DNA of 63,319 bases, the filler included, from Folioceros fuciformis (taxonomy: Eukaryota), in NCBI GenBank assembly GCA_049999805.1. It is 15 parts of 15 records of this genome, joined end to end, with 100 filler letters (N's around TTAATTAATTAA, not from the genome) between each part and the next. Parts side by side here need not be neighbours in the genome. Positions count along the whole stretch, not along the records: positions 2,393 to 9,143 come from JBNGIO010002292.1; 14 more parts are not named here. One strand, 5' to 3'. The position numbers and the translations under genes were made by a program. The first letter of the stretch is position 1; the number at the start of each line of letters is the position of its first letter. The notes under the pieces are model-generated. The model was not told the origin of the DNA and made no database searches. It saw nothing but the letters and a program-made list of their open reading frames with translations. This document shows, piece by piece, positions 645 through 59,256 of this stretch.

Positions 645-2292
645 CAAATGCTCCCGCACACAGATCCACATCAGTCCTTGACCTCGTTCATGCGGATATC
701 TCAGGCAGATTACAAGTGCCATCACTGGGTGGTGCCGAGTATTACCTCACCTCACGGATGATTATAACCGTTATACTTGGACTTACCCTATGAAATATAA
801 ACAAGAGACATTTACCTTCTTTAAGGATTGGTTATTGGTTGCTCAGAGGCAAACCGGCAGATTGCTCAAGCTGTTCAGATCTGACAATGGAGGAGAGTTC
901 GTTAACAATGCCTTCACCCAGTTCTTGAACGAGCAAGGTATCATCCATCAGCTTATCGTTCCTTACACTCAACAGCAAAACAGAGTTGCTGAAAGGAAGA
1001 ACCAAACCTTGATGGGGATGACTCGTTTAATGTTGCTGTGGTCTGGCTTGCCATCACCTTACTGGGCCGAAGCCGTGGTTACGGCTACATACATTTGGAA
1101 TCGTCTGCTCACATATTCTGTTCCGGATAAAACTCCATATGAAGTGTTCTGGGAACGCAAGCCCACCATCTTGCATCTCAGGATCTTTGGATCACGTGCC
1201 TTTGCTTACATACCTGCTAAAAAACGACGTAAGTTAGATAATAGGTCACAGGACCTTATCTTCGTCGGCTATAGCGAGGTAACCAAGGCATATAAATTGA
1301 TTGATCCAGGCAGCTTACAACCTGTAATATTGCTAGAAGTGTTACATTTGTGGAGACTTTGTATCCTTCAGTCCTTGGTGAAGATGATAGACCAGTGGAC
1401 TCTGCAGACCTTACTCACCTTCTCTACACAGAAGATCATGTTGATTATCCAGACGTGCAGACCAGACTGATCTAGAGCTCCCAGCTCAATCCTACTTCCC
1501 CCCTAATCAGCCTGTACAACTTGAACAGGTTGATGAATTTGTTGAATCCGCAGCCCATGCACCTGCACATGATCCAGATCAAGAGGTAGTTAATGAAAAT
1601 GATTCTGAAGTGGATTCTAACACGAATGATGAAGATTTTCATCATGACTTTGTAGAGATAGATGAAATGGAGCCTATAGACCTATCAGCTCCTGATCTTC
1701 CACCTCAGTTTGCCATTCCTTACCCACCTCGACGATCAGATTGTCATCGTCCACCTCCTTCACAATGGACAGAGCCTCCCTACTCATCTGTGGACTTTCG
1801 TCATTTAGTGGGAGCCTACCAGCCATGTTCACATGCTGCCTCATCTTCTCCTATCCCTCCTGAGCCTATCACCCTTACAAAAGCATTTATAGGCCTTGAT
1901 AAGCAGAAATGGAAAGCAGCAGTGGATGATGAATATAAAAGCCTCATGGACAATGGCACCTGGAAGCTCGTACCTCGTCCCAAAGGTCGACGTCCAATTA
2001 CCTGCAAATGGGTATTTAAGCATAAGTTGAATGCAGAGGGAGAAATTGCAAGATACAAGGCACGACTTTGTGCCCGAGGTTTCACCCAAGTACTTGGTCT
2101 CGATTTTCAGGAGACTTTCTCGCCAGTGGTACGTTCACAATCCATTCGCCTTATGCTTGCCCTCGCTGCTGAACACGATCTTGAGCTTGAGCAGATGGAC
2201 GTTAAGACCGCCTTTCTCCATGGTGTTCTTGAGGAAGAGTTGTACATGGAGCAGCCCGAGGGCTATGAAGACCCTGCACATCTAGACTGGGT
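645..2292 (+). mobile_element. Degenerate Ty1/copia pol (integrase to RT N-terminal half)
   Basis: Motifs VLDLVHAD, RSDNGGEF, PYTQQQNRVAERKN, GTWKLVPRP, YKARLCARGFTQ and QMDVKTAFLHG. Frameshifts are present. Confidence 0.95.
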
Positions 2293-2392: not shown

Positions 2393-2472
2393 GAAAAAGA
2401 AAACCAAACCATACCACTATTAACCCTTTTTCAACCAAAACAAACTACTACCCCAAACTTTGGAGGTTCACA
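2393..2472 (-). mobile_element. LTR-A terminus abutting copia RNase H
   Basis: Junction ...CCCCAAACTTTGGAGGTTCACA|ATAGCACTGG. Confidence 0.85.
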
Positions 2473-2708
2473 ATAGCACTGGAGCCCTATCACTCGCAGA
2501 AAATCCTGTCTTTGATGCGAGAACTAAACATATTGAAGTGCATCATCACTTCATTTGTGGAGCTGTATCCTCAGGCCAAATACATTTGGAGTACATCCCT
2601 ACAAACGCAAACGCGGCATATGTGTTAACAAAAGCTCTACCTAAAGGTAAACATCATCAGCTTAAAGAAGCTTTAGAAGTCCTGGACTCCTCTTACCTTT
2701 CCAAGTAA
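2473..2708 (+). mobile_element. Ty1/copia RNase H C-terminus
   Basis: Translation NSTGALSLAENPVFDARTKHIEVHHHFI...EYIPTNANAAYVLTKAL. Confidence 0.95.
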
Positions 2709-2763
2709 AGAGAAAGGTAGATCATGATTGTCACTGTCATTAAGTGTATTTCATGTTCTAGAC

Positions 2764-3893
2764 CTAGAAGGCCATAGACACAGAATCACCGTCAGAGTTT
2801 GAGCTACTACTATTAGGCATACCAAAGAACACACAGTGAGTATCTCCATTCGTTTTTCCCTTCTGCAACTCTACGTAGTTGGGGTCAAAATTGTGTCCAG
2901 TTGGTTCCTCTCTTGTGCCGTTGTCCTTTGAAGCATAGTCCATGTCAGTCTCCTCATGCATCCTCTGTCGAAACTTTGTGAGGAGTTGATGACACTACAG
3001 CCAGGAAGTTAGTCCAGATAGCATCCTCAAACCACAGCAACAGTGTGCATAAAATTAGAGGCAAGCTAGACAGACTTACTGTAGAAAGAAATAAAGTTCC
3101 CGTTCTCTCCACCCCATTTGAACCAGTCTTCCCTCACCATTTCTATTCTTGTAACGGTGCAAACATAAGCTTCAGGAGTAAGAGGGTTGTTGATACCGTC
3201 TCCATTAGTCACCAGTCTCACAGTCTTGCTCCTTTGTCCCCTAGGTAGAGTATAGGGTCTTGGGTTGTGTAGGATTGGCAAGACAACATACTCATCTTCG
3301 ATCTGCGGAGGAAGCTTCACTGCATTAAGAGGACCCACATGTGAGAAGCAGTTGTGATCAGTGGGAGCATGCACTGGAGCAGCGGGAGCACGAGATGGGG
3401 CGTTTGAACTTACAGCTAAAACATCGGTAGCCTGAAGCTGTCTTCAAAGAGTAGAAATCTCGTGAGTGAGAAGAGCTTTGCGCTTCTCCATCTGTTGGAT
3501 TTTCTTCATCCAGTACGCGTCGGTGTGTGTGGCCTCGTGCTTATCTCGTCTCAGCCTTTTTTGGAGCATGGTTGCGGCGAAGGCGGAGAGGCGCAACATC
3601 GTGACAGTCGCATGTGGGAGCTTGCGCAGGAGCACCTTCTTCAATAGGTGCTGGTGTTGAAGCAATAACGCAAGCCGCCACCATAGCGGCAGCAGTAGAA
3701 GCAGGATCTTTAGACTTCTTTGCAGAAGGCGGATTGAGCTTTGAGCTGGAATCTAGTGTCGCAGTTGGTTGACTCGAAGACCTTGGCGCAGCTCCAGATT
3801 GAACCATCTTGTCGGAAACTTGGAACATGTAACAGGAGCTGGCGTCTTGTGTTTCTGAGCAGAGAATTTAAGCAAGAGATTTGATGACGACAT
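2764..3893 (-). pseudogene. Degenerate antisense ORF between copia pol and the 3' LTR (unknown product)
   Basis: A chain of minus-strand ORFs (3541-3828, 3444-3665, 3066-3374, 2764-2961) can be joined through frameshifts and stops. It has an S/A/P-rich N-terminus and a coiled-coil-like segment. Confidence 0.45.
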
Positions 3894-4008
3894 GCGCGAG
3901 TGGGAGCTGAAGTACCTATTTGGAGTTCCTCGTGTTCGTGCTGCGCTGGTGAACGTTCAGACTAAGTTCAGTAAAGAAATTTCGATAAAATACCTAAGCA
4001 CTTCACAA

Positions 4009-4305
4009 TGAGCGGGAGTGTTGATTAATTAATATACATTGCTATGCTTAGGGCTAGCACCTTAGGTTGTTAGGTCATTTGGCGGTTACAACTGCCAGTA
4101 CTACTTTGACATATATGTAAGGATTAGAACATACTATATACTATTCTTCCTAGACATTGTGTGTGTAGATCACGTTTAATATATGAACACAATTGAAGAA
4201 GGAACAATGTCCAAAGTAGTTATGAAAACTGAATCTAAAACGTATGTTCAAGTCTATGTAACTTAAGTAATATTATATACGCATTATTCAAACGTGCCCT
4301 AATCA
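4009..4305 (+). mobile_element. Copia polypurine tract plus 3' LTR (TGTTGATTAA...CCCTAATCA)
   Basis: TGAGCGGGAG|TGTTG is a typical copia PPT/LTR junction, followed by ~290 AT-rich bp. The right end is approximate. Confidence 0.6.
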
Positions 4306-4884
4306 GGGCTCTAATAGCCATAACCTCAACAAGCTCAATGCACGCACGATCTGACTTTCCTTTAAGACCCAATGCACAAAATTTGTGACTTTCATCAAAA
4401 TACAACTTCCTAGCAGCCCGTGGTAGTCCCTTCTACGAACAACCCCCAAACCAAGTTGATTGTCCTCCACATCCACAAGCTGCAATCAACCTCACTCCAT
4501 GTCCACACATGGTCTCCCAAATTAACATTCCTTCACTTGCAATATAGGCACATCGATGTCAATGCATGATGCAAATGGTGTGCATTTGGCAAATAGTTCG
4601 TGCACTGCAAGCCACAACGGTAGGCCCTATCCCTCAAATCTTCTAGCTCCTGCACAAACCATTCTCAAGTTAGGATGTCGACCACAAACATTTGACTCAG
4701 CTCCCTCTCCCACTGCTTAAGACTTACCCCGGTCAGCAAGTGAACTGTGCACAATGCTAGCTCCTTTGGTGCATTGTTCCTTGCAAATTGAGGTCCCGGA
4801 ATCATAAACTCACTAGTAGTGTCGTTGTCAACACCATAGGGTGGAGGCCCTTCCAAACCTACTTAGGTGTTCTACTTCCTGGAA

Positions 4885-4956
4885 GGCCTTAGCTTGGAAT
4901 GTGGCCTCAGTTGGAATGTGGCCTCAGCTGGAATATGGCCTTAGTTGGAACGTGGC
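4885..4956. repeat. 17-bp tandem repeat x4 (GTGGCCTCAGTTGGAAT)
   Basis: Read directly from the sequence. Confidence 0.85.
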
Positions 4957-4971
4957 TGTCTACAAACACCA

Positions 4972-5129
4972 TTCTCCTCACCTTGTGCAAGTTACCGACA
5001 CAAACAAAGTTTTCCTCACCTTGTGCAAGTTACCGACACAAACAAAGTTTCCCTCACCTTGTGCAAGTTACCGGCACAAACAAAGTTTTCCTCACCTTGT
5101 GCAAGTTACTGGCACAATTAAAGTTTTCC
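4972..5129. repeat. 38-bp tandem repeat x4 (TTTTCCTCACCTTGTGCAAGTTACCGACACAAACAAAG)
   Basis: Read directly from the sequence. It duplicates the NLHKVR-coding segment of the transposase. Confidence 0.9.
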
Positions 5130-5320
5130 GACTCATCCCTCATTCTCAACATGAAGACAGCATGGAGTGAGTGCACATGCCAAGGATTCGTTGTATCTAG
5201 CTCATTGCTTGCTTGCAAATCCATCATATATCCCTTGTACAAGCAGGTCCATTTCTCTTTCAATGACCTCCAAAAGTGATCAATTCTATGCAACAACCCC
5301 AACTCACAGTATGTGATGGT

Positions 5321-5625
5321 TGTCGCAATGCATCTCTCATCTCCCATCCATGCCATTGCCATCCCTCTCACCAGGCTGCTGCAATGCATCTCTCAATCTC
5401 CCATTCATGCCATTGCCATCCCTCTCACCTGGCTGTCGCAATGCATCTCTCATCTTCCATTCATGTCATTAGCATCCCTCTCACATGGCTGTGGCAATGC
5501 ATCTCTCATCTCCCATCCATGCCATTGCCATCCCTCTCACCTGGCTGTCGCAATGCATCTCTCATCTCCCGTCCACGCCATTGCCATCCCTCTCACCTGG
5601 CTGTCGCAATGTATCTCTCATCTCT
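5321..5625. repeat. 56-bp tandem repeat x~5.4
   Basis: Unit TGTCGCAATGCATCTCTCATCTCCCATCCATGCCATTGCCATCCCTCTCACCTGGC. Confidence 0.9.
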
Positions 5626-7183
5626 AGATGGCCCTCTAATGAAGTTACTACCATTCTCCCGCGGTCTAGCCCTCACAAAGTGTGCCTCCACTTGGTTGTG
5701 CTCCGTTGCAAAGTCTGAGCGGATGCACTCTGGGTGACTAAACTTTTGCACTACCTCCAAGTATGCACTGTAGATCATCTCCGCCCTCTTGTTGTTGGCT
5801 AGCAAGGCCCACGTTACAAAGTGCATGGCACCATCTATTTCTCCGTGGACCTACGTATAGAGCATATATAGCTTGTCATATGCTGCATCCATTGCCCACA
5901 GTTACTTCTCCTCCACCATGAGAAATTCATGAATTTCCACACAATTAGTACCATCAATTGCACTCACAATCCATGTGCCACATAAACATGGGCGTCCTAT
6001 TCGTATATTACACTCTTCGCATCCTCAGTCTTGCGCGCATTTCCATTGCCTCCGATTGCAAAGCCCATAGTGCATCAGCGATTTTCCATCTTGGAATGAT
6101 GTACCCTGCGTCCACAATGTAGCCTTCACCAGCCCTACCCCCAGGTCACACCATGACTGGTGATGGCAACGTGCTGCACTATGAGCGCCGCAACTGCCTC
6201 TACTGTCAATTGCTGCCCAGCATAAGCACTTGTCCACCCTTGACAAGCGCCCAGCCACCTCCTCAATGTCCTAGCCGTGCAGCCAAGCTCGTCAGCTAAC
6301 CCGTTAAGAGTCCGTCCCGATCGCCTTGTCTCCAATGCCAACTCTTCCAAAACTTCCAACGGCATCGGGCAACCCCGATGTCGTTGTGGCCGCCCTCCCC
6401 CCCCTTTGCGACAGGATGTGCTCCACTGGATGCAATGGTGGAGTCCTCCCCTCCTATCGGCTTCCACATTTTCCGACCCCGACTACTCCGTTGTACCTGT
6501 CGTATGCGCTTTGCCTCGCCTACTGTCCACAATGCCCTATCACTGTGGCAATGTCAGCCCCTCATGGTTGCACTGGAGCCAATCTTCTCCCCAATCACCT
6601 CCCCCTGGCATCTAACGTTCAGCGCCTACGCGGGCAACTTGCTTTCAGTGCCCGCTCACTTCCCTTTCTCATGGAGTGTCCCTTTTCTTCGAGTTGCCTT
6701 CCACTTCAACTGCCGGGGATTCGCTGTAAGTGGTGGCCTACGGACTAGGGGCATGGGGCTATTCGCAATCATCAATCCCGTCCCCGTATTGGTCTCCGCC
6801 CAGCAGAAAGTCTCATTTTCATTGCAATTTCGGGCATATATTCTACAAACACATAGTCCGCACCAATTGTGCTATTGAGCATCGGGTCTACGAAGGAGCA
6901 TGGGGCCATTGAAGCCACTGGGGCCCCATCGAAGCCATAGGCCTCCTCGGCTCTGCAATGTTTAAGCAGCACCATACTGCATTCACGATCTTCCTCGTAT
7001 TCATGTTACGTATAAGGGTTTGCAAAAAAACCAAGTCTATTGCTAACATAGCCACTAGCAACCTCTCACACTTCTCGCACAAAACCAAAAAAACGTTCCC
7101 AATAGCCTCCGGCCAACCCCAAGTACTTTCAGAAGACAACCACTAACGTGAATTTGCCTCATCCTCACCGTAACCACCAAAGG

Positions 7184-9022
7184 CTATGGCATCCCGTAGA
7201 CAGCGTTGTGTGCGATGGCACTCTCCAAGCGCTCTAGCATGGCTGCAACTGATGCATATCGAGGAAGCAACAATGTCCCAGTGCAAGTTCGAGCTGTAGG
7301 TAGTTAGCCCTCCGCCAAGAGGGGCACCTCACACACAGTCATCAGACCACCGTCCCCGAAGAAAACCCGATCCGTGATGAATGTGTACAATTTTGCCCTC
7401 AATGCATACGGTAGATTTCTAACTGTTGCTGTGAACATGTCTCGCATGTCCAGTGAGCAGGCTTGGAATGTTGTTGCCCTCAAGAACTCCTCTGCCCTAC
7501 AAACCTGAGATGCACAAAAGAACAAGTTGACCACCTCAACGGGCATGGTATCCACAATGGGCAATCGGATTCGAGCTTCCAGGCTATCGACGATGTGCCT
7601 GAAGCCCTCACCCACCATCCCTCCAACTGGTTGGCAACTCCGGAACAGAAGCTCCTCAGTCAGTTTCTCCTTCAAATACATCAACATCGACACGGAAGTG
7701 TGGCCCTGGCTGGAACCTAGCAAAGTGCTTGAAGAATGCAGGGTTCGCTGCAGTCACTAGAGCAACTGCTTCCTTTATGGTTGCATCTTGTTGGTCTGTT
7801 GCCGCTCGAGCGGACTTCTTAAGCAAAGACAAGACAGCCATCAGCTCCGGGTAGAAGACCTTCATATTTACCTTGAAAGCTTTCTTCAAGTAGGTGGTGC
7901 CGGGTTGGTCATGCCATGCCTTATGCACACCAAACTTCTGGCTCCCCAAGGCATGTGCAAGCGTGCCTGTTGTCATCGGCTTCGACACCTCCACACCATT
8001 TGTCAATACAAGAAACACAAGAAACCTGAAAAACTGTGCCTGCACAGCATGGCACACGCATCACATGCATTGCCTCAAACACATGCCCCACACCCCTCAG
8101 CCGTTTGTGGTTTGGTGCATACCACCATTTCGCTGAGGGCGGAAGCAGGCTTTCCTTTCTTCACGTGGCACACAGTCCTACACGAGTTATGGCCGTCCCT
8201 GGAGTCAAACACACAGTTCATGAGAATCGGGTTCTGCCAGAATTGCCGCCATGCTTCGCTGATGCACCTCCGCGTTGGCCCACAGGCGTCCACCGTTTCT
8301 GCCTCTAGCAACGCTCCTCCTCCGTGCCTGGTCATGTATTGGACCTTGAACTCAGGGAACACTCCCATGCGCTCGACGTGCCCCCTGAAATGCTCGAAAA
8401 GTGCGCTGCACTCCATGCCTGCCTCTACCTGCTTTGCAAGTACACTGGATGTGATTAGCATGGCAACCATCTGTACGCATCTAGAATCACTATTCACATG
8501 TAGCTTACCCGCAGAATAGTTGTGCGCATCGTACGCCTCCTGCGCCGCCTGCAAGTTCATTTCATCGAAGTCCACAACACGATCATGTTGGCGGGGCGGT
8601 GGCCAGTCCCGCAATTGCAGCCAATCCCGGTGGCTGGCTTGTAAGCGAAGCAACTCATCCTCCTCAACTGTGTGCTGTAGGTTGCTCTCAGCCCACACCT
8701 TGCACAAGGCTTCCAGTTCAACAACTCCCAGGTCCATACTAGGATCAATGTCTTCCAACATTTGTATGACAAAGGCTGCTGGTGATGTTCGTTGTGCAAT
8801 GAAGCATTCTATGGCTGAGACTTCAAACATGTCAAAGCCAGGGATTGACACAATTTCTCGCACCAACAACTTCCCATCTCCGTCCGCCACACCAGTTGCT
8901 TTCTTTAAGATTTGGTCAAGCCGGGTGAGGACAGCTGCGTGCTCCTCATTCCCATCCGCCCGGGCCTCTCGTACGCGCGCTTCATCGACCATCTGGTAGA
9001 AGACTTTAGGGCCGAAAGCCAA
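7184..9022 (-). pseudogene. Divergent HECT-domain E3 ubiquitin ligase, degenerate; N-terminus uncertain
   Basis: N-lobe-like FKVQY...EAETVDACGPTRRCISEAWRQFWQNP. C-lobe FTATVRNLPYALRAKLYTFIT...G*LPTARTCTGTLLLPRYASVAAMLERLESAIAHNAVYGMP*, resembling the HECT consensus LPTAHTCFNxLxLPxY. Probable intron at ~8040-8095, one frameshift at ~7660-7700 and one internal stop at 7304. Confidence 0.75.
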
Positions 9023-9126
9023 GAAAGAGACTAGTCCAGGTCATGTGCCTTAAAGGGCCGAAAGCCAAGAGAGAGACTAGTCTAGGTCATGTGTCCTAGA
9101 GGGCCGAAAGCCAAGAGAGGGGCTAG
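9008..9126. repeat. 46-bp tandem repeat x2.6
   Basis: Unit AGGGCCGAAAGCCAAGAGAGAGACTAGTCTAGGTCATGTGTCCTAG, starting at 9008, 9054 and 9100. Confidence 0.85.
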
Positions 9127-9243
9127 CCTTGCAAATATCGATCNNNNNNNNNNNNNNNNNNNNNNNNNNNNNNNNNNNNNNNNNNNNTTAATTAATTAAN
9201 NNNNNNNNNNNNNNNNNNNNNNNNNNNNNNNNNNNNNNNNNNN

Positions 9244-11104: not shown

Positions 11105-11281
11105 ACCAAAACCGCCATGAGTCCGAGACCGATAGCGCCAGAGGCTGGCACACTATCCGCAGGCCCTGAGCTCCGCACCTGNNNNNNNNNNNNNNNNNNN
11201 NNNNNNNNNNNNNNNNNNNNNNNNNTTAATTAATTAANNNNNNNNNNNNNNNNNNNNNNNNNNNNNNNNNNNNNNNNNNNN

Positions 11282-11963
11282 GTCTCCTGGTACTTCGTCT
11301 GACAGGCTCCTCAGGTACAAAGACCTCCATATGTTGAGGGATTTCAGATTCTGCTGACTGTGCTAACCCGTCATCGACTTTTTGTTCATTAGAAGCATCA
11401 TCATCATTGTTGGCCATACCCATGTCATGTGAGACTCGACTGGACTCATCATCATCAGGGAAGTAGCTAGTTTCCTCGACTTGATCATCTAGTGGAGTTT
11501 GATGACTAATGGCAGGCTGATGTGATGTAACAGAGGGTCTAGACTGCACATGGTAACAGAGGGTCCTGCACATGGGGTGCAGGAACCTGAGCTAGAGTCT
11601 GACTCAAAGTAGACATCTCAATGGCTTGGTCTTCTATCTCTATGTCCTCTGAATGACTGCTTGAAGCCTGTGTGCTCAAAGGAGCTAATTGAGGAGGTTC
11701 TAGCAATGCATGTTCATTGAAAAGAACACTTCTAGAATGCGTTGTTGTTCTAGTATCAGGATCATAGAGCTTGTAGCCTTTTATACCTTCATTGTAGCCC
11801 ACGAAAACATATTTGCGTGCTTTATAATCCAGCTTCACCCGCTGGTCCTCAGCCAAATGTGCATAGGCAGGAGCACCGAAAATACGTAGGTGATTAATTC
11901 GTGGCTTGTGTGATGTCCACCGCTCATATGGGGTGGCACCTAGAAAAGCTTTGGTTGGCAGGC
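11282..11963 (-). mobile_element. Copia integrase C-terminal region and linker
   Basis: LPTKAFLGATPYERW...HLRIFGAPAY...KLDYKARKYVFVGYNEGIKGYKLYDP. Confidence 0.9.
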
Positions 11964-12715
11964 TGTGGAGGCAAAACCCCGGGCACTGATTGCCAACGGG
12001 TTCCACCTTTAGTGGCCACACTTATCCCACTGTCGTTGAGACATTGGGTTTCGTTCCCACGAAGGAGCGATGGGGTTCCTTGCTGCTGTGGATGGAGGGT
12101 CGGACTTGATCGACTCGATGATGGATTCGAGGGCTCCCCTCCAGCTCTGATCAGGCGTAGAACAGGCCTCGCTGTCTAGCGGTCAGCTGCACCTCTCTCG
12201 GTGCCCACAAACTCACTCCAGTCACTACAACGACTCTAACCTCTCATATCTACGACTTCCCTTACACACTTCACTCACTCTCTCACCCCAGCACCAACAC
12301 CAGCAACTAACAATGACACCACTACCTTCTACACTTCCCTACTAACTCCTCCTACCCGGCAAGAGTCACTAGACTAACCCCAAAGAAAAGAAAGAAGGGA
12401 ACACACTCCCCTCTTGGATATCTCCCCCCTACAACCTTACCAGACACCATGAGACATGGCCGGCCTATAGCACTTGTCCAAGCAAGGAACAAGAGTGGAC
12501 AGGTTGAGAGAAAGACACATCCTTTACAATCAAGAGCTAGGGGGAAGCCCCTATACCCTGATCATTACACCTTGTGATCCTACCAGACACTATACAACCG
12601 GCAACAAGCTGCCCGCGATCCTACCAGACACTGTACAACCGCCAACACGCTGCCTACGATCCTACCAAACACTGTACAGCCGGCAACACACGGCTTGCGA
12701 TCCTACCAGACGTTG
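11964..12715 (-). mobile_element. LTR-B terminus (...GGGGTTTTGCCTCCACA on minus) with internal 41-bp repeats
   Basis: Near-identical to 27001-27989 and 36265-37196, with a sharp TG boundary. Confidence 0.85.
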
Positions 12716-12815
12716 NNNNNNNNNNNNNNNNNNNNNNNNNNNNNNNNNNNNNNNNNNNNTTAATTAATTAANNNNNNNNNNNNNNNNNNNNNNNNNNNNN
12801 NNNNNNNNNNNNNNN

Positions 12816-14336: not shown

Positions 14337-14436
14337 NNNNNNNNNNNNNNNNNNNNNNNNNNNNNNNNNNNNNNNNNNNNTTAATTAATTAANNNNNNNN
14401 NNNNNNNNNNNNNNNNNNNNNNNNNNNNNNNNNNNN

Positions 14437-15032: not shown

Positions 15033-17492
15033 CTAGGGCTGGATGGTTATGTAGTCCACCAGACCCAGGGCTTCAGCATGGAAGTTATGCTTCAGCATGG
15101 GTAGACTTTTAGTGAGCACATCCGTAGTATTCAGCTCGATGGGGACGTGCTCAATGCTAACCACCTTCCTCTCCACTGAGTGTCGAACAAAGCGGTGATG
15201 TATCTCGATGTGCTTGGTCCGAGCGTGGAAGCGCGGATTCCCCACCAAGGCAATAGTGGACATATTGTCACAGTAAACCACAGTAGGGTCCTTCTGCACA
15301 AAGTTCAAACCACCAAGGAAAGAGCGTTCCCACTCAGCCTCCTTAGCTGCATCTGTAAGGGCCTTGTATTCTGTCTCGGTTGAGGACAATGCTACTGAAA
15401 CTTGTTTCTTGGAGCTCCAGTTAACAGCTGCACATGACAAGAGGAAACAATAGGCAGAGAGACTGCGGCGGTGATCGGGATCGGTGGCCCAATCTGCGTC
15501 GCAGAAACCCTGAAGACTGACAGCTTCATCTGTTCCAGCTCGGAAGCAGAGTCCATATGTGGAGGTACCCTTGAGGTAACGCAATATTCTTTTAACGGCT
15601 ACCCAGTGCACCTGACCAGGATCCTTAAGAAATTGTGAGATAGCAGAGACTGAATGCTGAATATCGGGTCGGGTCCAGCAACTAATGTAGTTGAGGCACC
15701 CAACAGCATGCCGATAAGGCACAAGGCGCATAAGCTCACGGTCTGCGTCATCCTGAGGGCTCTGCCTAGAGGTAAGCTTCAAACCAACACTACCAGGTGT
15801 ACTCATTGGTTTGGCATCCTGTAGGTTAAAACGTCGAAGAGTCTCACCAATATATTTTGTTTGATGAAGGATAAGGGTGCGGTGAGCCCTGTCGCGGATA
15901 AGCTGCATGCCGAGGACAAAGGTTCGAGCTCCGATGTCCTTCATATCATAGCGCTTATGCAGCATCCCTTTCACCCAGTCCAACAGCTCCCTGTTGTTAG
16001 AGGCTAGGATAGCGTCGTCGACATAGAGGGCTAATATAACCATGTGACCACCCTTGTTGTAGATGTACACGTTAGTATCAGCCGGATTTTGGATGAACCC
16101 AATGGACTTCAAGTACTTGTCGATACACTTATACCATTCTCGGGCACTTTGCTTCAAACCGTAAATTGTTTTCTTCAACTTACATACCCAGGTGGGATGT
16201 GCAGGATCCACGAAACCCTCAGGCTATTCCATATAGATATCCTCCTCAAGGTCTCCGTACAGAAAAGCTGTAGACACATCCATCCAGAGTAAATCTGAGT
16301 TAGCTGGACTTGAAACGGTGATAGGAGATCGGACTGAAGCTGGCGACGGTGACAACTGTGAACGAGGCTGTGACCCAAGCTGTTGAGGCTGCGCAGTGGG
16401 TGGTGATCGAGTGCCGGGCTGCTGAGATGTAGCTCCAGGGTGCACAAATCCACCCCCTGAACGGCCAGCAGGCATAGGAGAGGCATGAGGCAGTTCATAA
16501 AAGACATCCTGGGGATACTCAGCACGGGAATCAGATGCATCGGTGTCCAGAGAGGCAGACGACACAGGCAGAGAGGGGAACTCAAAAGCAAGCCCATTGA
16601 AGGAAGGGGCAGGAGAGTGAAGTTCCCTAAAGTTGACGCTGCGGGCAAAAACCAGGCTCCTTGATGTCGGGTCGTAAAGCTTGTAAGCTTTGGATTCCTC
16701 CCCATAGCCAACAAAGACAAGGGGTCGTGCTTTATCATCCAGTTTCTTACGTTGTTCAGGATGGATAAGAGCATAGGCTGGGGAGCCAAAAACTCGAAGG
16801 TGAAGGAGACTGGGCTTGCGCTGCCACATCGCTTCAAAAGGTGTGCGATCAGGCAAAGCTGAGGCAAGCAACCTGTTGAGAATATATGTAGCAGTCACGA
16901 CAGCCTCGACCCAATACGCCTTGCTCAAACCAGACCATGTTAGCATACTCCTAGTCATATTAAGAAGAGTTTGATTCCTACGCTCACCAACCCCGTTTTG
17001 TTGCTGGGTGTAAGGAATACTAAACTGACGAGTAATCCCCTGTGCTGCCAAGTACTCATTGAAGGCAGAATTAACAAATCAGTCCCGTTGTCGGACCTGA
17101 GGTAGCGGAGAAGGCAGCCTGTTTGACGCTGGATCATAACCAGCCACTCCTGGAAGAACTGAAAAGTGTCGGACTTGCGTTTCATTGGGTAAGTCCAAGA
17201 GTATCTGCTATAAGTGTCAGCAATTGTCAAGTAGTAGAGAGAGCCACCCAGAGAGGCAACATGGATCTTCCCACAAATGTCAGCATGGACAAGTTCTAAA
17301 ATATTGGAAGTTCTATGTGCAGGCGTCGAAGGAAAAGGCAACTCCTTCTACTTAGATACAATGCAGGCTGTACAACTAGGTAACTCTCGAAAGCACTTGG
17401 GAGAGGTTCCCGATAACAATTAAGCTTAGACATCCGAACTAACTTGTCCTGGTTGGCATGACCTAGACGTGCATGCCAAAGTTGGGCAAGTG
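15033..17492 (-). mobile_element. Copia pol (GAG-pre-integrase, integrase, partial RT, RNase H), degenerate
   Basis: LWHARLGH, ELVHADICG, RSDNG, ALYVDD, GFCDADWA, ARTKHIEI. One stop in ME*PEG and an internal RT deletion. Confidence 0.95.
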
Positions 17493-17592
17493 NNNNNNNN
17501 NNNNNNNNNNNNNNNNNNNNNNNNNNNNNNNNNNNNTTAATTAATTAANNNNNNNNNNNNNNNNNNNNNNNNNNNNNNNNNNNNNNNNNNNN

Positions 17593-17630
17593 CCAAAACA
17601 AACTCCTACCCCAAACTTTGGAGGTTCACA
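17593..17630 (-). mobile_element. LTR-A terminus
   Basis: Junction ...TTTGGAGGTTCACA|CTTGCC into copia RT. Confidence 0.85.
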
Positions 17631-19286
17631 CTTGCCAATGTTTGCGACCAGGGTTAGAGAGGAAACGGGAAACAAAACCAGCGGCCTGGGAAATGTCTGG
17701 ACGGGTCCATCCAGCCAGGTAAAGGAGACTGCCTACGGCTTCTCTATAGGGAATAGTAGACATGTCCTCTTTTTCTGATTCAGTCCTTGGGCAATCCTCC
17801 AAAGAGAGTTTTTCTCCAGCTGATACAAGTGTTGAAACAGGGGTAAGATCAACTAGGTTAAACTTGGTTAACAATTGACGGATGAAGTGGGACTGATGTA
17901 TTATAACACTGTCTGCTGCAGGATCAAAGAGAAACTGGATCCCTAAGGCAAATTTAAGGGGTCCCACATTAGTCATGTCCCATTCTTGGGATAAGGCTTG
18001 CTTGATTTCTTGTAGGATCTACTCATCACTAGTGAAAAGGAAGTTATCATCAACGTAAAGTGCTATAATGCATATCTGATTCTTCCTCTTCAAAACATAT
18101 ACGCTACTGTCAGCGTCAAGAGGTTCGAAATCCAAAACCTTCAACTTTTCATCTGCCCGTGCATTCCAAATACGTGCAGATTGTTTTAGTCCATAGAGAG
18201 ACTTTAACAGCTCACATACTTTGTCTTTGTCAATGATGTACCCTTCAGGTTGGTGCATGAAAATAATCTCGTCCAAAGGCCCGTTCAAAAAGGCCGTCTT
18301 GACATCCATTTGATGGACCAAAAACTTATTGGCCACTGCATAGCAGAGTAATATTCTCATTGAGGTAGGTTTTACGACGGGACTGAACGTTTCGTTATAG
18401 TCCAGCCCTTGAATCTGGGTATAGCCCCTTGCGACTAATCGGGCTTTATAGCAAGCCACTGATCCATCCGGGTTCAATTTCAATTTAAATACCCACTTAG
18501 AGGTAATTGCTTTCCTTCCGGGTGGTAGGTCCACTAATTTCCATGTTCCATTTGATATCAAACTGTTGTATTCAGAATCAATTGCTTTTTGCCACTCAGT
18601 CTTTTGGGGGCCTGAAATGCTTCACGGTATGTAGCAGGTGTGTCAGGTGGTTCCATGATTGTGGAGGCAACAGAACTGGCGAAAACTGCAAGACTTGAAC
18701 GTGGTGCATTGGTGGGTTGATTCTCATGGGACCTAGAGACAAGGGTATCACCAGGTTGATAGGGTGGATTGAGCCATTCAGGTGGAGGGCGATGTATGCG
18801 GGCTGACCTTCTCAAAGGTATGGTGTCTTGCACTAAATCTAAATCAGCGATCGGGTCTAGAGGTTCTGCTGGTTCGACAAATTCAGGTTCAGGTTCAGGT
18901 TCATCTAAAATGTCTAGATCTTAATCGTCTAGAATAGGAATTGGGGCTGGTGCTAGAGGTGCTACATGTTGACCTGCGGGGGCTGGTGCAGCTACTAGGG
19001 GAGGTTGAATAGCTGCTTGATTATGCACTGCTACATCAGGCTGTACAGCATCTAGAAGGATGTCTGGAATGAAAGTAACAGTGTCAATATGTTCTGTATC
19101 ATCTGCAGCTGAATTTGTTGGTGTGTGTCCAAAAGCTGATGGTTTAGACAAGGGCATATGACTTGAAACAGACTGAAGATGACGTGCAAGGATGAAGCTT
19201 TCATTAAATTTGACACTGCGAGCCAAAGTTAACTGCCTAGTGTAGGGATTGTATAATTTGTATCCCTTTGACTGTTCTGAATATCC
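17631..19286 (-). mobile_element. Copia pol fragment (integrase end, linker, RT), degenerate
   Basis: GTWKLVDLPPG, YKARLVARGY, QMDVKTAFLNG, ALYVDDN, YREAVGSL. Confidence 0.95.
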
Positions 19287-19386
19287 NNNNNNNNNNNNNN
19301 NNNNNNNNNNNNNNNNNNNNNNNNNNNNNNTTAATTAATTAANNNNNNNNNNNNNNNNNNNNNNNNNNNNNNNNNNNNNNNNNNNN

Positions 19387-20848: not shown

Positions 20849-21100
20849 NNNNNNNNNNNNNNNNNNNNNNNNNNNNNNNNNNNNNNNNNNNNTTAATTAA
20901 TTAANNNNNNNNNNNNNNNNNNNNNNNNNNNNNNNNNNNNNNNNNNNNAACAACCTCAACGGAAACAAGTGTTGGAAACTTTTGCTGAGAATGAGCGCAC
21001 GAACAGACTGAAACGATTTGTTGGTTTGGAGGAAGTTGTGTGTAAGAAGAAAAAGACGGTGAGGTCGAACATAGGCAGTTGATAAAGAGTGGATTGATGC

Positions 21101-24708: not shown

Positions 24709-25227
24709 NNNNNNNNNNNNNNNNNNNNNNNNNNNNNNNNNNNNNNNNNNNNTTAATTAATTAANNNNNNNNNNNNNNNNNNNNNNNNNNNNNNNNNNNN
24801 NNNNNNNNCTCCTGGCCTTCGCGCGTCACCCCTTGCTGCTCTTCCTCTCGCTCTTCTGCCCCTCCGTTGGTCCGGCAGATCCTCCCAGAGGATCTCCACA
24901 TCACTGCTGCTACTGCTGGACCTGGCTGGTGGCGCAGGTGGGTCTTGCCGATGTGGTCTACCACTCCTCCTCCTTCTCTGGTTGCTGAGGACAGCCACAG
25001 GCCCCCGTTCTACCCAGCGCTGGGCCTCCTCTTCCGTCAATTCCTCCAGAACTGCCTCCGCATAGCAGTGGGGCAGTCCTGTCACCCACCATCTGTAGTG
25101 GTAGAGTCCCAGGCGCGTCCTCAATTGCAGGCCGTAGCCCCGCGTCCCTCCTGTGCCCATACGTACATACAGAAACAGCTTTAGAACCCTGGCCCCTTCT
25201 ACATACAGGCCTAGCACATAGGAGGCC

Positions 25228-26264: not shown

Positions 26265-26609
26265 CTTCCTCTGCTCCTTCTGCCGCTCAAGCTCCAGGCT
26301 GCGCTCGCCCCCGAGCCGTCTCCACCTCCCGTTGCCTCTCCTGGTACAGGTTCCGCAGCTGCTCCTCCCCGCCCAAGCTCTCAGCAACAGCGGCGCGTCC
26401 CCCGTCCCTGTCCGATCGCCCAACGTTTCTCCCCATCCGCTGTTGATCCACCAGCCAGGCCAGTTGGTCCAACTCGCCGGCCTCCTATACCACCGACCTG
26501 CTTCGCCCANNNNNNNNNNNNNNNNNNNNNNNNNNNNNNNNNNNNNNNNNNNNTTAATTAATTAANNNNNNNNNNNNNNNNNNNNNNNNNNNNNNNNNNN
26601 NNNNNNNNN

Positions 26610-27000: not shown

Positions 27001-27989
27001 TGTGGAGGCAAAACCCCGGGCACTGATTGCCAATGGGTTCCACCTTTAGTGGCCACACTTATCCCACTGTCGTTGAGACATTGGGTTTCGTTCCCACGAA
27101 GGAGCGATGGGGTTCCTTGCTGCTGTGGATGGAGGGTCGGACTTGATCAACTCGATGATGGATTCGAGGGCTCCCCTCCAGCTTCGATCAGGCGTAGGAC
27201 AGGCCTCACTGTCCGGCGGTCAGCTGCACCTCTCTCGATGCCCACAAACTCACTCCAGTCACTACAACGACCCTAACCTCTTAGATCTGTGACTTCCCTC
27301 ACTCTCTCACTCCAGCACCAACACCAGCAACTAACAATGACACCACTACCTTCTATACTTCCCTACTGACTCCTCCTACCCGGCAAGAGTCACTAGACTA
27401 ACCCCAAAGAAAAGAAAGAAGGGAACACACTCCCCTCTTGGATATCTCCTCCCCACAACCTTACCAGACGCCATGAAACATGGCCGGCCTACAGCACTTG
27501 TCCAAACAGGGAACAAGAGCGGACAGGTCGAGAGAAAGACACATCCTTTACAATCAAGAGCTAGGGGCAAGCCCCTACACCCTGGTCGTTACACCTTGTG
27601 ATCCTACCAGACACTATACAACCGGCAACACGCTGCCCGCGATCCTACCAGACACTGTACAGCCGGCAACACGCTGCCTGCGATCCTACCAGACACTGTA
27701 CAGCCAGCAACACACGGCTTGCGATCCTACCAGACGTTGCACAGCCGGCAACACACTGCAGGTCTTAAACCAAGCAGGGACGGACCACTAGAGCTCATGA
27801 AGAGAGGACCTCCAAGAGCTCACAAAGTGACAGACTGACTCCCAAAGTGAATGACTCCCTCCTCCTACAGGCTCACCTGATCTTATAGGAGCCTCTCTCT
27901 CTCTCTGACTTCACCTCTCTCTAACTTGAGAAATATTATTTTAATAGGACCACTAGCCTAGCCGGCTGTCACCAGCCACTTATTTAGAC
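27001..27989 (-). mobile_element. LTR-B 3' portion with 41-bp repeats (27600-27760) and a TATA-like CTATAAG (27882-27888, minus)
   Basis: Near-identity to the 11964 and 36265 copies. Confidence 0.85.
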
Positions 27990-28089
27990 NNNNNNNNNNN
28001 NNNNNNNNNNNNNNNNNNNNNNNNNNNNNNNNNTTAATTAATTAANNNNNNNNNNNNNNNNNNNNNNNNNNNNNNNNNNNNNNNNNNNN

Positions 28090-29542: not shown

Positions 29543-31615
29543 CTACGCAACCTTTGGGATCACGTTCTCTGGTGGAGGCTGAGAAACTGTCACGGCACGG
29601 AGCAGCTCCAGGGAGAAGAGCAAGCCCAGGTAATGGGAGAGGATGGCGTTGCCCGAGGCCTGCAAGACGGTCCCAAATGACAGGGTGGGAGAATGATTGT
29701 ATGAAAAGAACAGTGAGGTGAATGGAGATGGGAAGAGGGCATACCTGGACGAGGAAGACATCCAGAGCGAGGACGGGACTGTGTCCTGCAGTAGGCCCCT
29801 GCAGGTAGGGTGATGCAGAGGAGGTCAGGGCCTTGGCTACCAGGGCACCCACGGTTGCTTGCAGTCCGAGGATGGTGGACCCCAGTCCCAGGATGTTGAT
29901 CACCAGTCCGTTTCTCAAGTTCTTGATCACTTCGGCACGGGCAGGTGCCTGCGGGATTCCGTACAGCACAAGGAAGCTCTACTGTGAAAACTTATGCACC
30001 CTCAGGCATGGAACAGGTAGCGGAAATGAAGGGATGCAGATGCCCGGGAGATCAGAGGGCCATGGGCAGCTTTTGATGAATCCAAGAAGAAAAATTCATT
30101 AGAGGATTCTGGCAAGGAGCAAGGGAGGACTGAATTGCAGCAAGAAGCCAGGTCAGATTGGAATGCAGCAAGGAGTATGGGAAGATTGCAATACAGCAAG
30201 GAGCTGGAGAAGTTTGAACTGTGGCAACGAGCGAGGGAAGGTTGAAATGCGGCAAGGAGAAAGGGAGGATTGAAGTGCAGCAAGGAGCAAGGGAAGGTTG
30301 AAATGCAGGAAGGAGCAAGGGAAGGTCGAAATGCAGGAAGGAGCAAGGGAAGGTTGCCATGCAGCAAGGAGCAAGCGAAGATTGAAATGCAGCAAGGAGC
30401 AAGGGAAGACAGAGATGCGGCAAGGAGCCCGGGAAGACAGAAATGCAGCAAGGAGCAAGGAAAGGGTGTAACGCAGCAAGGAGTAAGGGAAGATTGAAAT
30501 GCAGCAAGGAGCAAGGGAAGATTGAAATGCAGCAAGGAGCAAGGGAAGATTGAAATGCAGCAAGGAGAAAGGAAATGGTGAAATGCAGCAAGGAGCAAGG
30601 GAATGGTGAAATGCAGCAAGGAACACGGGAAGGTTGAGATGCGGCAAGGAGCAAGGGAAGATTGAAATGCAGCAAGGGGCAAGGGAAGGTTAAAATGCAG
30701 CAACGGGCAAGGGAAGGTTAAAATGCAGCAAGGAGCAAGGGAAGATTGAAATGCAGCAAGTAACAGGGAAAGATTGAAAAGCATCTTCAGATGATACCTT
30801 CGTGGGATCAGCGATGCTGGACTGGAGCTTCTGAGCCAGCCGGATGTAGCCGAAAGACCAGAAGACGGACAGAAAAGCGGCAACAATTCCAGCGGTTGTC
30901 AGATACAGGCTGACAGGCGCGGTAGCAGAGCCGGTTATGACGAGAGAGAAAGCAAGGATCACTGCCGAAACCACGGTGCAGATGAGCTGCGTCCAGAAAC
31001 CCCAGCTCCCCAGTCGCTTGAAGTAGCTAGCAGTGCGCTCCAGCCGCTTGGCAACCTGCATGCACCCCACCACCTCCTTCTTCACAGACTGCCCACACAC
31101 ACCCATACGCATGCGGCGAAACCCCGACCCCGGAGAAGGTGTCGTCTATCATCCGTGCCCACCATCATCCGAAGGACACACCAATGCCGAATCCTTCCAG
31201 ACCACCAACATTCCCGCAATTGTACATGGATGTCAGCCAGCAATCTACAGCACGGAACAAAACCAACCTGGGCTCGCTTCTGGGCTTCAGCAGGATCATC
31301 CACAGCAGCGGACGCGTATCCCGAGGTCTCATTGGAGACGCCGGCCCGAACCAGCACTTTGCGGCCCCGGCGAAGCATGGACAGATGCGGGAGGCACTTG
31401 GCCACCAGCGCCCAGGAGGGCGGGCCGGACAGGGCCCCAAGAGAGGACAGCTTCACGCTCCGGTTGTGGGCGATGGCGAGGCCGCCGCCTTTGTGGGCTC
31501 CAACCGGCCGCGCGCGGAATGTTGCATTTGCAGAGCAGGAGGAGGAGGCGAGGCAGGGCGCTGGTGGGATGCAGCTGGCCCGCTGACGCAGCGACGGTCG
31601 ATGCAGGCCCTGCAT
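29543..31615 (-). CDS. TIC21: Chloroplast inner-envelope protein TIC21/CIA5/PIC1 (DUF3611), 4 exons
   Basis: Transit-peptide-like exon 1, then VAKRLERTASYFKRLGSWGFWTQL...FWSFGYIRL, GLQATVGALVAKALT...PVLALDVFLVQ|ASGNAILSHYLGL. Confidence 0.93.
30110..30780. repeat. Intronic 28-bp minisatellite x~24 (GCAGCAAGGAGCAAGGGAAGATTGAAAT)
   Basis: Read directly from the sequence. It lies within TIC21 intron 2. Confidence 0.95.
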
Positions 31616-34033: not shown

Positions 34034-34551
34034 CTCCACCTTTGGAGGAAATGAGACTTGTGCTCATGACGTGCAATCAGTTGACCAAGATTTCGCTTCA
34101 GGTTAAACGAAACCCTATTATTTCAGTGTCTATTTTTCAATACTTCGTTTATGCTTGCACTACCCTAGGTGTGTGTAGGTATAGCCATAGCCATACCTAC
34201 AGCTACAGCTACAGCCCAGAGTCTGATACAATCGTAACTAAGAATCTTGATCTCACACTAAAATAATGAAGAAAACTTTAGAGGTAACTGACTAGCTGGG
34301 AGTGAACATGTGTCCCCGTTTATTGACCGGTATGTTGAGGGGTTGAGGGCGACGTCACGACGCGCGCTGGAAATATGACACAAGAAGTGTACAGGTCGAA
34401 GAAGAGGGAATCGGACGTAGGTACAGTACACAGGTGCGACATGGGAGGGGGNNNNNNNNNNNNNNNNNNNNNNNNNNNNNNNNNNNNNNNNNNNNTTAAT
34501 TAATTAANNNNNNNNNNNNNNNNNNNNNNNNNNNNNNNNNNNNNNNNNNNN

Positions 34552-36264: not shown

Positions 36265-37196
36265 TGTGGAGGCAAAACCCCGGGCACTGATTGCCAACGG
36301 GTTCCACCTTTAGTGGCCACACTTATCCCACTGTCGTTGAGACATTGGGTTTCGTTCCCACGAAGGAGCGATGGCGTTCATTGTTGTTGTGGATGGAGGG
36401 TCGGACTTGATCGACTCGATGATGGATTCGAGGGCTCCCCTCCAGCTCTGATCAGGCGTAGGACAGGCCTCGCTGTCCAGCGGTCAGCTGCACCTCTCTC
36501 GGTGCCCACAAACTCACTCTTGTCACTACAACGACCCTAACCTCTCAGATCTGCGACTTCCCTCACTCACTTCACTCACTCTTTCACTGCAGCACCAACA
36601 CCAGCAACTACCAGCAACCAGCAACGACACCACTACCTTCTACACTTCCCTGCTGACTCCTCGTACCCGGCAAGAGTCACTAGACTAACCCCAAACAAAA
36701 GGAAGAAGGGAACACACTCCCCTCGTGGATATCTCCTCCTCACAACCTTACCAGAGATGCCATGAGACATGGCTGGCCTACAGCACTTGTCCAAGCAAGG
36801 AACAAGAGTGGACAGGTCGAGAGAAAGACACCTCCATTACAATCAAGAGCTAGGGGCAAGCCCCTTCACCCTGGTCATTACACCTTGTGATCCTACCAGA
36901 CACTATACAACCGGCAACACGCTGCCCACGATCCTACCAGACACTGTACAGCCGACAACACGCTACCTGCGATCCTACCAGACACTGTACAGCCGGCAAC
37001 ACATGGCTTGCGATCCTACCAGACGTTGCACAGCCGGCAACACACTGCAGGTCCTAAACCAAGCAGGGACAAACCACAAGAGCTCATGAAGAGAGGACCT
37101 CCAAGAGCTCACGAAGAGATAGATTGACTCCCAAAGTGAATGACTCCCTCCTCCTACAGGCTCACCTGATCTTATAGGAGCCTCTCTCTCTCTGAC
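36265..37196 (-). mobile_element. LTR-B 3' portion
   Basis: TGTGGAGGCAAAACCCCGGG starts at 36265 and the copy is near-identical to the 27001 copy. Confidence 0.85.
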
Positions 37197-37612
37197 NNNN
37201 NNNNNNNNNNNNNNNNNNNNNNNNNNNNNNNNNNNNNNNNTTAATTAATTAANNNNNNNNNNNNNNNNNNNNNNNNNNNNNNNNNNNNNNNNNNNNTTTG
37301 CTCTGACGAGGGTGAATTGGCAAAAGGAGCAGAGTACTCTGGTCTGCTCCTCACGTCTCATGTGCTCCATGATGATACGACAAGGTCTGTCCACCAGCTC
37401 AACTCAGCTGGCCGACGTCCTTCCTCGCCGGTTTCCCGCCCAAAAACGACCAAGCCCACTTTAGCTACGCTTGATTTTTGTACGCGAGGTGTTGTAGAGA
37501 ATTCTATATAAGTAAGCCTTCCACATAAATTCCTAGGTCGCTTCGCTTGAAGGCCAGTACAACGGTTGCTTGGCAGAACGAAAATCTTCGGTGGCGGACA
37601 ACTGGAGAAGCT

Positions 37613-46217: not shown

Positions 46218-46420
46218 AATGTTCCGCCCTTTACGCGCTATACCAACTGTTCATCAACGGCATCCCCAGCTCCTAGTCTTCGTTGAGTCTTCCTCTTCTG
46301 GAGGAGCTCAAATACCAGGCGCAGGATATGAGCCTGTACAGGAAAGAAGCAACACAAGTTGAACCAGCAAGTACATGATATAGCGTCTGCTCCAGCTAGT
46401 AACGCATCCCGTAGTTCAGC

Positions 46421-59156: not shown

Positions 59157-59256
59157 NNNNNNNNNNNNNNNNNNNNNNNNNNNNNNNNNNNNNNNNNNNN
59201 TTAATTAATTAANNNNNNNNNNNNNNNNNNNNNNNNNNNNNNNNNNNNNNNNNNNN

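Follow-up and report, generated by a model that had tools for sequence, protein, structure and literature searches.

Contig JBNGIO010002292.1 of Folioceros fuciformis (assembly GCA_049999805.1) raises the question of whether it carries a working transposase gene of the IS3EU superfamily or the remains of one. The contig occupies positions 2393-9143 of the 63,319-nucleotide stretch analysed here (the window). The original prediction, made from the sequence alone, described a spliced IS3EU-type transposase in a land plant, hidden from the open reading frame (ORF) track by the change of frames between its exons. The ORF list and the translations showed that every transposase motif named by that prediction can be found on the minus strand at 4668-6482, and that the series is colinear. 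The gene that they belong to is broken. We read 4668-6482 as a pseudogenised GingerRoot-type transposase gene of the IS3EU/GingerRoot superfamily in land-plant nuclear DNA and put the probability of this reading at about 0.85.

The family assignment is based on profile searches, homologue searches and a phylogenetic tree. Five pieces of the gene were scanned against Pfam with matches retained up to E=10. Two of them matched PF24764 rva_4 ('Integrase core domain'), namely 5596-5850 (E=9.7e-8, 32.4 bits, profile positions 26-101 of 194) and 5057-5392 (E=1.7e-7, 31.6 bits, profile positions 103-169 of 194), both above the cut-off of 26 bits; one further piece matched weak helix-turn-helix (HTH) families only, and two matched nothing. 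The two rva_4 matches are colinear and lie far beyond chance. The HTH of the original prediction is present as a piece of sequence, but its support is weak: HTH_23 reached E=0.003 and 17.7 bits, under its cut-off of 24.6, and in a comparison with an alignment of 12 family proteins (hhalign) the piece fell on columns 71-147, in colinear position, with E=8e-4 and a probability of 24%. The pre-core piece likewise matched columns 157-192 of the family weakly and in colinear position (E=0.027). With its weak N-terminal matches colinear with the GRP-HTH region of the family, the whole gene body is represented. A BLASTP comparison of the HTH ORF with one full-length relative gave no match, and no homologue came from a word-indexed search in which the 85-residue core piece was compared with longer proteins.

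The translation of exon 2 (P0001, with the in-frame TAG read as X) was used as the phmmer query against 1.84 billion representative proteins; at E<=0.001 it retrieved 61 of them, with a best E-value of 1.4e-11. The highest identity among these matches was 52% over 61 residues, and the best-scoring match was 39% identical. When 75 relatives and their cluster mates were aligned to the contig by tblastn, they fell on two stretches that differ in frame, 5901-5602 and 5290-5090, and the exon 3 piece matched the relative P0005 in BLASTP with E=1e-9. Motifs of the rva_4 type were found in all 61 relatives, which split into two motif types: the IS3EU type, with WH.DG.HKL, IDG[FY]SR, NNRA and D.G.EN, and the GingerRoot type, with Y[DE]KL, IDG[AG]SH, NK and RSD[YF]A.EH. 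The maximum-likelihood tree (62 rows, 95 columns) showed a branch with 100/99 support that separates 34 IS3EU-type rows from 27 GingerRoot-type rows together with the row of the window. Only three of the relatives in the tree are named, Selaginella moellendorffii EFJ27351.1 on the GingerRoot side and, on the IS3EU side, one protein of a jellyfish and one of an agaric fungus. At the Pfam threshold given above no zinc-finger or chromodomain family was matched, in keeping with a group that, unlike Ginger1 and gypsy integrases, has no HHCC zinc finger, YPYY or GPY/F module around its core, and the N-terminus is only weakly HTH. The rva_4 matches, the phmmer relatives and the tree thus agree on a core of IS3EU/GingerRoot type that clusters with GingerRoot-type proteins. 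By these sequence affinities the gene is classified as an integrase-core DNA transposase of the IS3EU kind, as originally predicted, and more exactly of the GingerRoot branch.

Followed along the minus strand, the gene changes frame repeatedly. The N-terminal piece, GRP...LADELGCTARTLRRWL with the helix-turn-helix region, was taken from the ORF list at 6138-6482, and its frame is closed by a stop at 6135-6137. The pre-core piece, ..GRAGEGYIVDAGYII..RLRMRRV, translated from 6011-6145, lies in a different frame, and there is no room for an intron at this frameshift near 6145. In the pre-core frame an in-frame TAA stands at 6008-6010, just before YTNRTPMFMWHMD. The end of exon 1 (5968-6007), PMFMWHMD (YTNRTPMFMWHMD), carries the first catalytic aspartate and the first base of a split serine codon. 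It is followed by intron 1, a phase-1 intron of 85 nt with GTGAGT..GCAG ends, which the joining of coordinates and the comparison with relatives placed at 5883-5967; its GT..AG ends and in-frame join are real, while the coordinates first proposed were off by one base. Exon 2 (5596-5882), recognised by Pfam rva_4, phmmer and tblastn, runs from YDKL through VHGEIDG, NNKR and IRSDFATEH, which holds the second catalytic aspartate, to FIRGPS. Its translation is interrupted by an in-frame TAG at 5851-5853, between YDKL and HGEIDG, and the tblastn alignments of the relatives cross this codon (e.g., P0002 over 5886-5602, E=6e-20).

Downstream of this point the coding pieces are interspersed with tandem repeats. 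The second intron of the original prediction, placed between an arginine and IDHFW, can be traced by coordinate joining to 5286-5596, where 311 nt with GT..AG ends lie in frame and split the arginine codon, but it is almost wholly made of a 56-bp minisatellite (5317-5624, 5.5 copies, 89% matches), detected by Tandem Repeats Finder (TRF), self-BLAST and a repeat-family search, which begins inside the end of exon 2. The residues HNQ, which follow G[PS]S in the relatives, are missing from the relic. The exon 3 piece (5057-5293, minus strand; Pfam rva_4, BLASTP) reads (H)RIDHFWRSLKEKW..NPWH..SLH..NLHKVR and includes RIDHFW, in which the third catalytic position is D, as already noticed in the original prediction, versus E in 21 of the 21 representative relatives that span the motif. 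A 38-bp tandem array (4975-5129, 4.1 copies), found by TRF, the repeat-family search and the ORF translations, multiplies the NLHKVR codons and introduces stops. The translated stretch KVRRMVFVDSHVPTKAIFQ (4910-4984, minus strand) continues past the last 38-bp unit and is similar, by eye, to NLHRVR..RPSHVPARYFQ of P0005; a 17-bp array (TRF, 4885-4956, 4.2 copies) follows the 38-bp one. The gap after NLHKVR consists of the 38-bp and then the 17-bp array, and not of introns. The C-terminal piece with GPPPYGVD (ORF list and translation, 4668-4862, minus strand) lies in yet another frame, out of phase with the preceding AFQEVEHLSR by a frameshift near 4862-4870. It had no Pfam match up to E=10, and a YGVD-type motif was seen by eye also in the relatives P0023 and P0026.

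Stops and frameshifts are thus distributed across the whole gene, and nowhere on the coding strand do more than 115 codons pass without a stop. The first two catalytic aspartates are retained (WHMD and IRSD), but no intact DDE triad lies in an open frame. This copy is dead on account of two nonsense codons, at least two frameshifts, three tandem-repeat expansions, the loss of HNQ and the replacement of E by D. The frame joining by which an intact spliced gene had been proposed passes over the TAA at 6008-6010, the TAG at 5851-5853 and the frame changes near 6145 and 4862-4870, and that proposal could not be upheld. Moreover, the terminal branch of the relic's row in the 62-row tree measures 2.06 against a median of 0.55, about four times as long, which fits neutral decay.

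The positions of the two introns were compared with the relatives. The removal of intron 1 joins MWHMD-S-YDKL in frame (coordinate joining), and the nine residues WHMDSYDKL are identical, as read by eye from the published alignment, in SL_GR-020 of Selaginella lepidophylla. Among the 18 GingerRoot-type representatives with a YDKL-type motif, 17 are without WHxD and start a few non-homologous residues upstream of it; A or G directly precedes the Y in 15 of those 17, which is what one would expect if translation ran in phase 1 across an AG acceptor. Of these 18, the Selaginella gene model alone has the junction, as HMDS-YCKL. The IS3EU type is contiguous through WHxDG.HKL in 18 of 23 cases. After HNQ, nine of 11 GingerRoot-type representatives run into V and unrelated residues, as translation across a GT donor would give, and the other two run into RIE; the IS3EU type is contiguous here in 24 of 24 (R in 23, H in one). 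The junction at 5286-5596 lies within 2 nt of the post-HNQ intron position implied by the relatives, so that both intron positions of the original prediction coincide with those implied by GingerRoot-type proteins. The 85-nt length of intron 1 also fits the organism, in which introns of 80 and 83 nt are RNA-proven in the neighbouring gene.

From the places where the ORF predictions of the relatives break off, we infer that ancestral introns probably existed at both positions and that the original prediction, largely right on the motifs and the intron sites, had recovered the ancestral gene structure. GingerRoot-branch transposase genes seem to share two conserved introns that are absent from the IS3EU branch. 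A wider proposal can be built on this pattern, though we hold it to be doubtful. According to it, the GingerRoot-type, plant-associated branch would be defined by two ancient introns, one in phase 1 between WHxD and YDKL and one after HNQ and before the catalytic glutamate, with none in the IS3EU type; the relic would keep both footprints in a plant whose PPR gene lacks a close named match (41% identity at best), the host range of GingerRoot may extend beyond the species sampled in 2019, and the expressed gene upstream may be a passenger. A term search of Cerbin et al. (2019; PMC6839031) met introns and exons only in connection with captured gene fragments and did not turn up the conserved-intron point.

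The reliability of the sequence and its transcription were assessed with contigs assembled from reads. The comparison covered 5630-9000. The DNA contigs of two sets, X1 and X2, showed no difference from the window over 5630-6445. A contig of a third set, X3, from another study and another year, matched 5792-6002 exactly, the TAG included, and the sequence itself can be regarded as reliable. X3 is not on record as RNA and was identified as such by the spliced contigs of the neighbouring gene. This contig of 211 nt (depth 2.8) is the only RNA contig over the relic and retains intron 1. A rare spliced form could escape such contigs, and the stretches of the relic without X3 cover are uninformative on expression. 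Separately, an 806-nt X2 DNA contig matches only 5695-5715 (21 letters) and 5960-5983 (24 letters); 236 unlike letters separate the two matches, and both ends of the contig are loose; it may be a diverged second copy of the element, or a chance similarity.

The alternative that survives best, though an improbable one, is that the contig at 2393-9143 derives from a fungus, an animal or another eukaryote living with the plant. As artificial linkers join the 15 parts of the window, nothing ties this contig physically to the pentatricopeptide repeat (PPR), copia and tyrosinase sequences, which lie on other contigs. Fungi and animals commonly carry IS3EU elements (PMC12730594, PMC10045372), and the other ORFs of this contig are without recognisable relatives. 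However, the copy is placed in a clade with the Selaginella protein, across the 100/99 branch from the fungal and jellyfish proteins, and the contig recurs at 99-100% identity in two studies of the same labelled organism, one of DNA (2025) and one of RNA (2017). A trinucleotide comparison of the contig with the remainder of the window gave r=0.81, the third highest value of the 15 parts (range 0.29-0.91), and minisatellites of the same kind occur on other contigs. The land-plant origin assumed by the original prediction is thus likely, although physical linkage to plant genes is not proven.

Less probable still is an intact, spliced and possibly active IS3EU-type gene with its exons split over the frames. 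The in-frame GT..AG junctions at positions matching the relatives would suit such a gene, as would the similarity in length between intron 1 and the RNA-proven introns next door. Nevertheless, the TAA and the TAG lie inside sequence that aligns with the relatives and outside any plausible intron, the two frame changes and the stop-bearing arrays fall within coding sequence, and the absence of HNQ, the exchange of E for D, the unspliced RNA contig and the long terminal branch all speak against it. We give equally little credence to a domesticated host gene that lost catalysis and kept a DNA-binding role. It would account for the single copy in the window, the lack of detected inverted repeats, the replaced catalytic glutamate and the low RNA signal, but no ORF exceeds 115 codons, the N-terminal and core parts are both hit by stops or frameshifts, the branch is long, and no orthologue-like close relatives appeared among the phmmer matches. 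The probability that the sequence is an integrase fragment of a long terminal repeat (LTR) retrotransposon or a Ginger1 or Ginger2 element is negligible, since, although the window is rich in copia relics and GingerRoot was first named for its likeness to Ginger2 (PMC6839031), the Pfam scan of the relic pieces found rva_4 and no rve (PF00665), zinc-finger, chromodomain or reverse-transcriptase match even at E up to 10, while the copia relic at 682-1467 matches rve with E=3e-9, the N-terminus is HTH-like and not HHCC, and 61 of 61 relatives have rva_4-type motifs; the original rejection of a copia or gypsy integrase therefore stands.

Several observations weigh against the reading of the locus as a decayed GingerRoot-type transposase gene. 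Neither terminal inverted repeats nor TA..TA ends, and hence no flanking 6-bp target duplication, were identified in the 6.75-kb contig, in which the longest inverted pair is 22 nt and 77% complementary; as published elements measure 3.9-12.9 kb, the ends may lie outside the contig or have decayed. The gene is demonstrated, and the transposon as a whole is not. Self-BLAST found no second copy within the 63-kb window. Most GingerRoot-type relatives are unnamed proteins of metagenomes or read assemblies, with one named plant among them, and the apparent equivalence of rva_4 with IS3EU/GingerRoot was read by eye from a published alignment and not from a computed alignment to reference elements. 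X1 and X2 are possibly the source data of the window itself, in which case their agreement with it is not independent. The X3 RNA contig on part of the relic implies weak transcription. Finally, the introns are suggested indirectly, by truncated ORFs.

The superfamilies concerned are well described. Kojima and Bao (2023; PMC10045372) note that Repbase has listed IS3EU as a superfamily since 2013 and that it is marked by TA..TA termini and, as a rule, by 6-bp duplications. In their analysis IS3EU groups with GingerRoot in a single lineage (99% bootstrap), and the two are merged as IS3EU/GingerRoot; termini in the merged group are TA..TA and rarely TG..CA. Fungal IS3EU members are reported to carry passenger genes often, e.g., TET/JBP or alpha-kinase genes (PMC12730594). 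In S. lepidophylla, Cerbin et al. (2019; PMC6839031) described 77 intact GingerRoot elements of 3.9-12.9 kb with inverted repeats of 100-150 bp and a 6-bp duplication, and among plants they reported GingerRoot from bryophytes and lycophytes only. Land-plant transposases of the IS3EU type are therefore already known, under the name GingerRoot, and the novelty that the original prediction implied falls away.

The closest likeness described is to the S. lepidophylla elements. In the published alignment (SL_GR-020 and SL_GR-005; PMC10045372, Fig. S1 and Data S3), they share the order of the core motifs with the relic, with WHMDSYDKL, HG.IDGA, NKR, HP..[IL]R.D.A.EHN, F..GPS, RI[ED]H.W and NPWH..SLH in common, and the identity between SL_GR-020 and the relic, counted by eye, is about 45% over the first 70 core residues. 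Both have a land-plant host and an N-terminus without HHCC. Unlike them, the relic is a broken gene alone, for which no inverted repeats of 100-150 bp, TA..TA termini or 6-bp duplication were found; it also lacks HNQ, has D for E and contains three inserted minisatellites. The S. moellendorffii protein SELMODRAFT_412061 (EFJ27351.1; P0024) is 40% identical over 70 residues in BLASTP (E=1e-14) and shares with the relic its side of the 100/99 split, the HMDS-Y.KL junction and an rva_4 match, but it is annotated as an open gene model, which ends inside the core. Both sequences are on long branches, and their exact relationship is not fixed by the tree.

The IS3EU elements of animals and fungi in Repbase resemble the relic's family in the rva_4 match and in the overall architecture, in which an HTH precedes a DDE core that carries HNQRIE in the relatives. 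They differ in the motifs of the IS3EU type given above, in being contiguous at both intron positions and in lying on the other side of the 100/99 split. Prokaryotic IS3 and IS481, and IS481EU, have a distantly related RNase-H/integrase DDE core and an N-terminal HTH in place of HHCC (PMC10045372). They differ, by description and not by sequence comparison, in having no introns, other motif spacing, TG..CA termini and other duplication lengths.

A history of the locus can be proposed on the basis of these comparisons. The living gene would have encoded a cut-and-paste DDE transposase with an N-terminal HTH DNA-binding region and an RNase-H-like integrase core, a mechanism inferred from family membership. 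It would have had at least three exons, with a phase-1 intron inside WHxD-S-YDKL and another after HNQ. Decay has since brought a pair of nonsense mutations, frameshifts in at least two places, the expansion of three minisatellites, the loss of HNQ and the change from glutamate to aspartate at the third catalytic position. The present copy retains the exon-intron footprint and the first two catalytic aspartates, is unable to make a transposase and, as no terminal inverted repeats were found, is not mobilisable as far as the 6.75-kb contig shows. What is directly visible in the data is the family membership of the core, the lesions and the retention of intron 1 in one RNA contig.

Directly upstream of the relic, on the same contig and the minus strand, lies an expressed spliced locus of unassigned function (7055-8974). 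X3 RNA contigs (depth 15-24) cover it with GT..AG joints that skip approximately 8426-8505 (80 nt) and 8039-8121 (83 nt), and one short X3 contig also skips 7503-7869 (367 nt, GT..AG, minus strand). The removal of the 80-nt intron breaks a 321-codon ORF at 8078-9040 and leaves two shorter ones, of 202 and 245 codons, that do not share a frame. Searches of this locus gave no meaningful Pfam family (E up to 10), no homologue with the 321-residue ORF and no usable ESM Atlas match; the other ORFs of the contig, upstream and downstream of the relic, likewise had no meaningful Pfam family at this threshold and no usable ESM Atlas match. The locus may belong to the host, may be a gene in decay, or may have been a passenger of the old element. 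Its identity as a second diverged transposase was considered and rejected, as the tblastn matches of the P0005 cluster to 8452-8216 were weak (E 0.009-0.12) and Pfam was unsupportive.

The 15 parts of the window, 1.4-21.9 kb long, are joined by identical linkers of 100 bases, N44-TTAATTAATTAA-N44, with stops in all six frames. The linkers are located at 2293-2392, 9144-9243, 11182-11281, 12716-12815, 14337-14436, 17493-17592, 19287-19386, 20849-20948, 24709-24808, 26510-26609, 27990-28089, 34452-34551, 37197-37296 and 59157-59256. As the parts are joined in this way, adjacency across a linker cannot be taken to show that two sequences are physically linked. A 41-bp unit, GATCCTACCAGACACTGTACA..., occurs at 12576-12711, 27600-27759 and 36889-37048, each time at the end of a contig before a linker, and looks like a dispersed satellite at which the assembly stopped. 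The largest array of the window is a 28-bp tandem repeat at 30112-30783 (24 copies, 83% matches), which overlaps several long ORFs without a Pfam match. The three minisatellites of the relic, which stand within a span of 750 bp, were considered as a special feature, and this was rejected, as TRF lists 17 rows across the 63-kb window, among them four arrays of 41-bp units, three of which share one unit.

Copia relics with rve, SH3_retrovirus and RVT_2 matches are present on three contigs, at 682-1467 (plus strand), 11542-12021 (minus) and 15036-18621 (minus). An uninterrupted PPR gene of 1003 codons with an E motif is located at 46415-49423 (plus strand). Its protein is 29-46% identical to the 120 matches listed, of which the best named one (Diphasiastrum) reaches 41%; the named matches among these 120 come from gymnosperms (Cryptomeria, Ginkgo and Taxus), lycophytes (Diphasiastrum and Selaginella), ferns, a moss and one angiosperm (Centaurea solstitialis, 29%). 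These relatives point to a land plant and to no finer placement. The PPR gene, the copia relics, a tyrosinase domain and a malectin-like fragment, all on contigs other than that of the relic, are clearly plant sequences.

For annotation, a gene call is out of place here, and the stretch is best masked as the decayed relic of an IS3EU/GingerRoot DNA transposon of the GingerRoot type. The two-intron pattern is the one small new point of the analysis, which opens no new question; if true, the intron pair would be a simple marker separating the GingerRoot branch from the IS3EU branch. The relic itself would be one more land-plant occurrence of a superfamily that Cerbin et al. (2019) had met among plants only in bryophytes and lycophytes.

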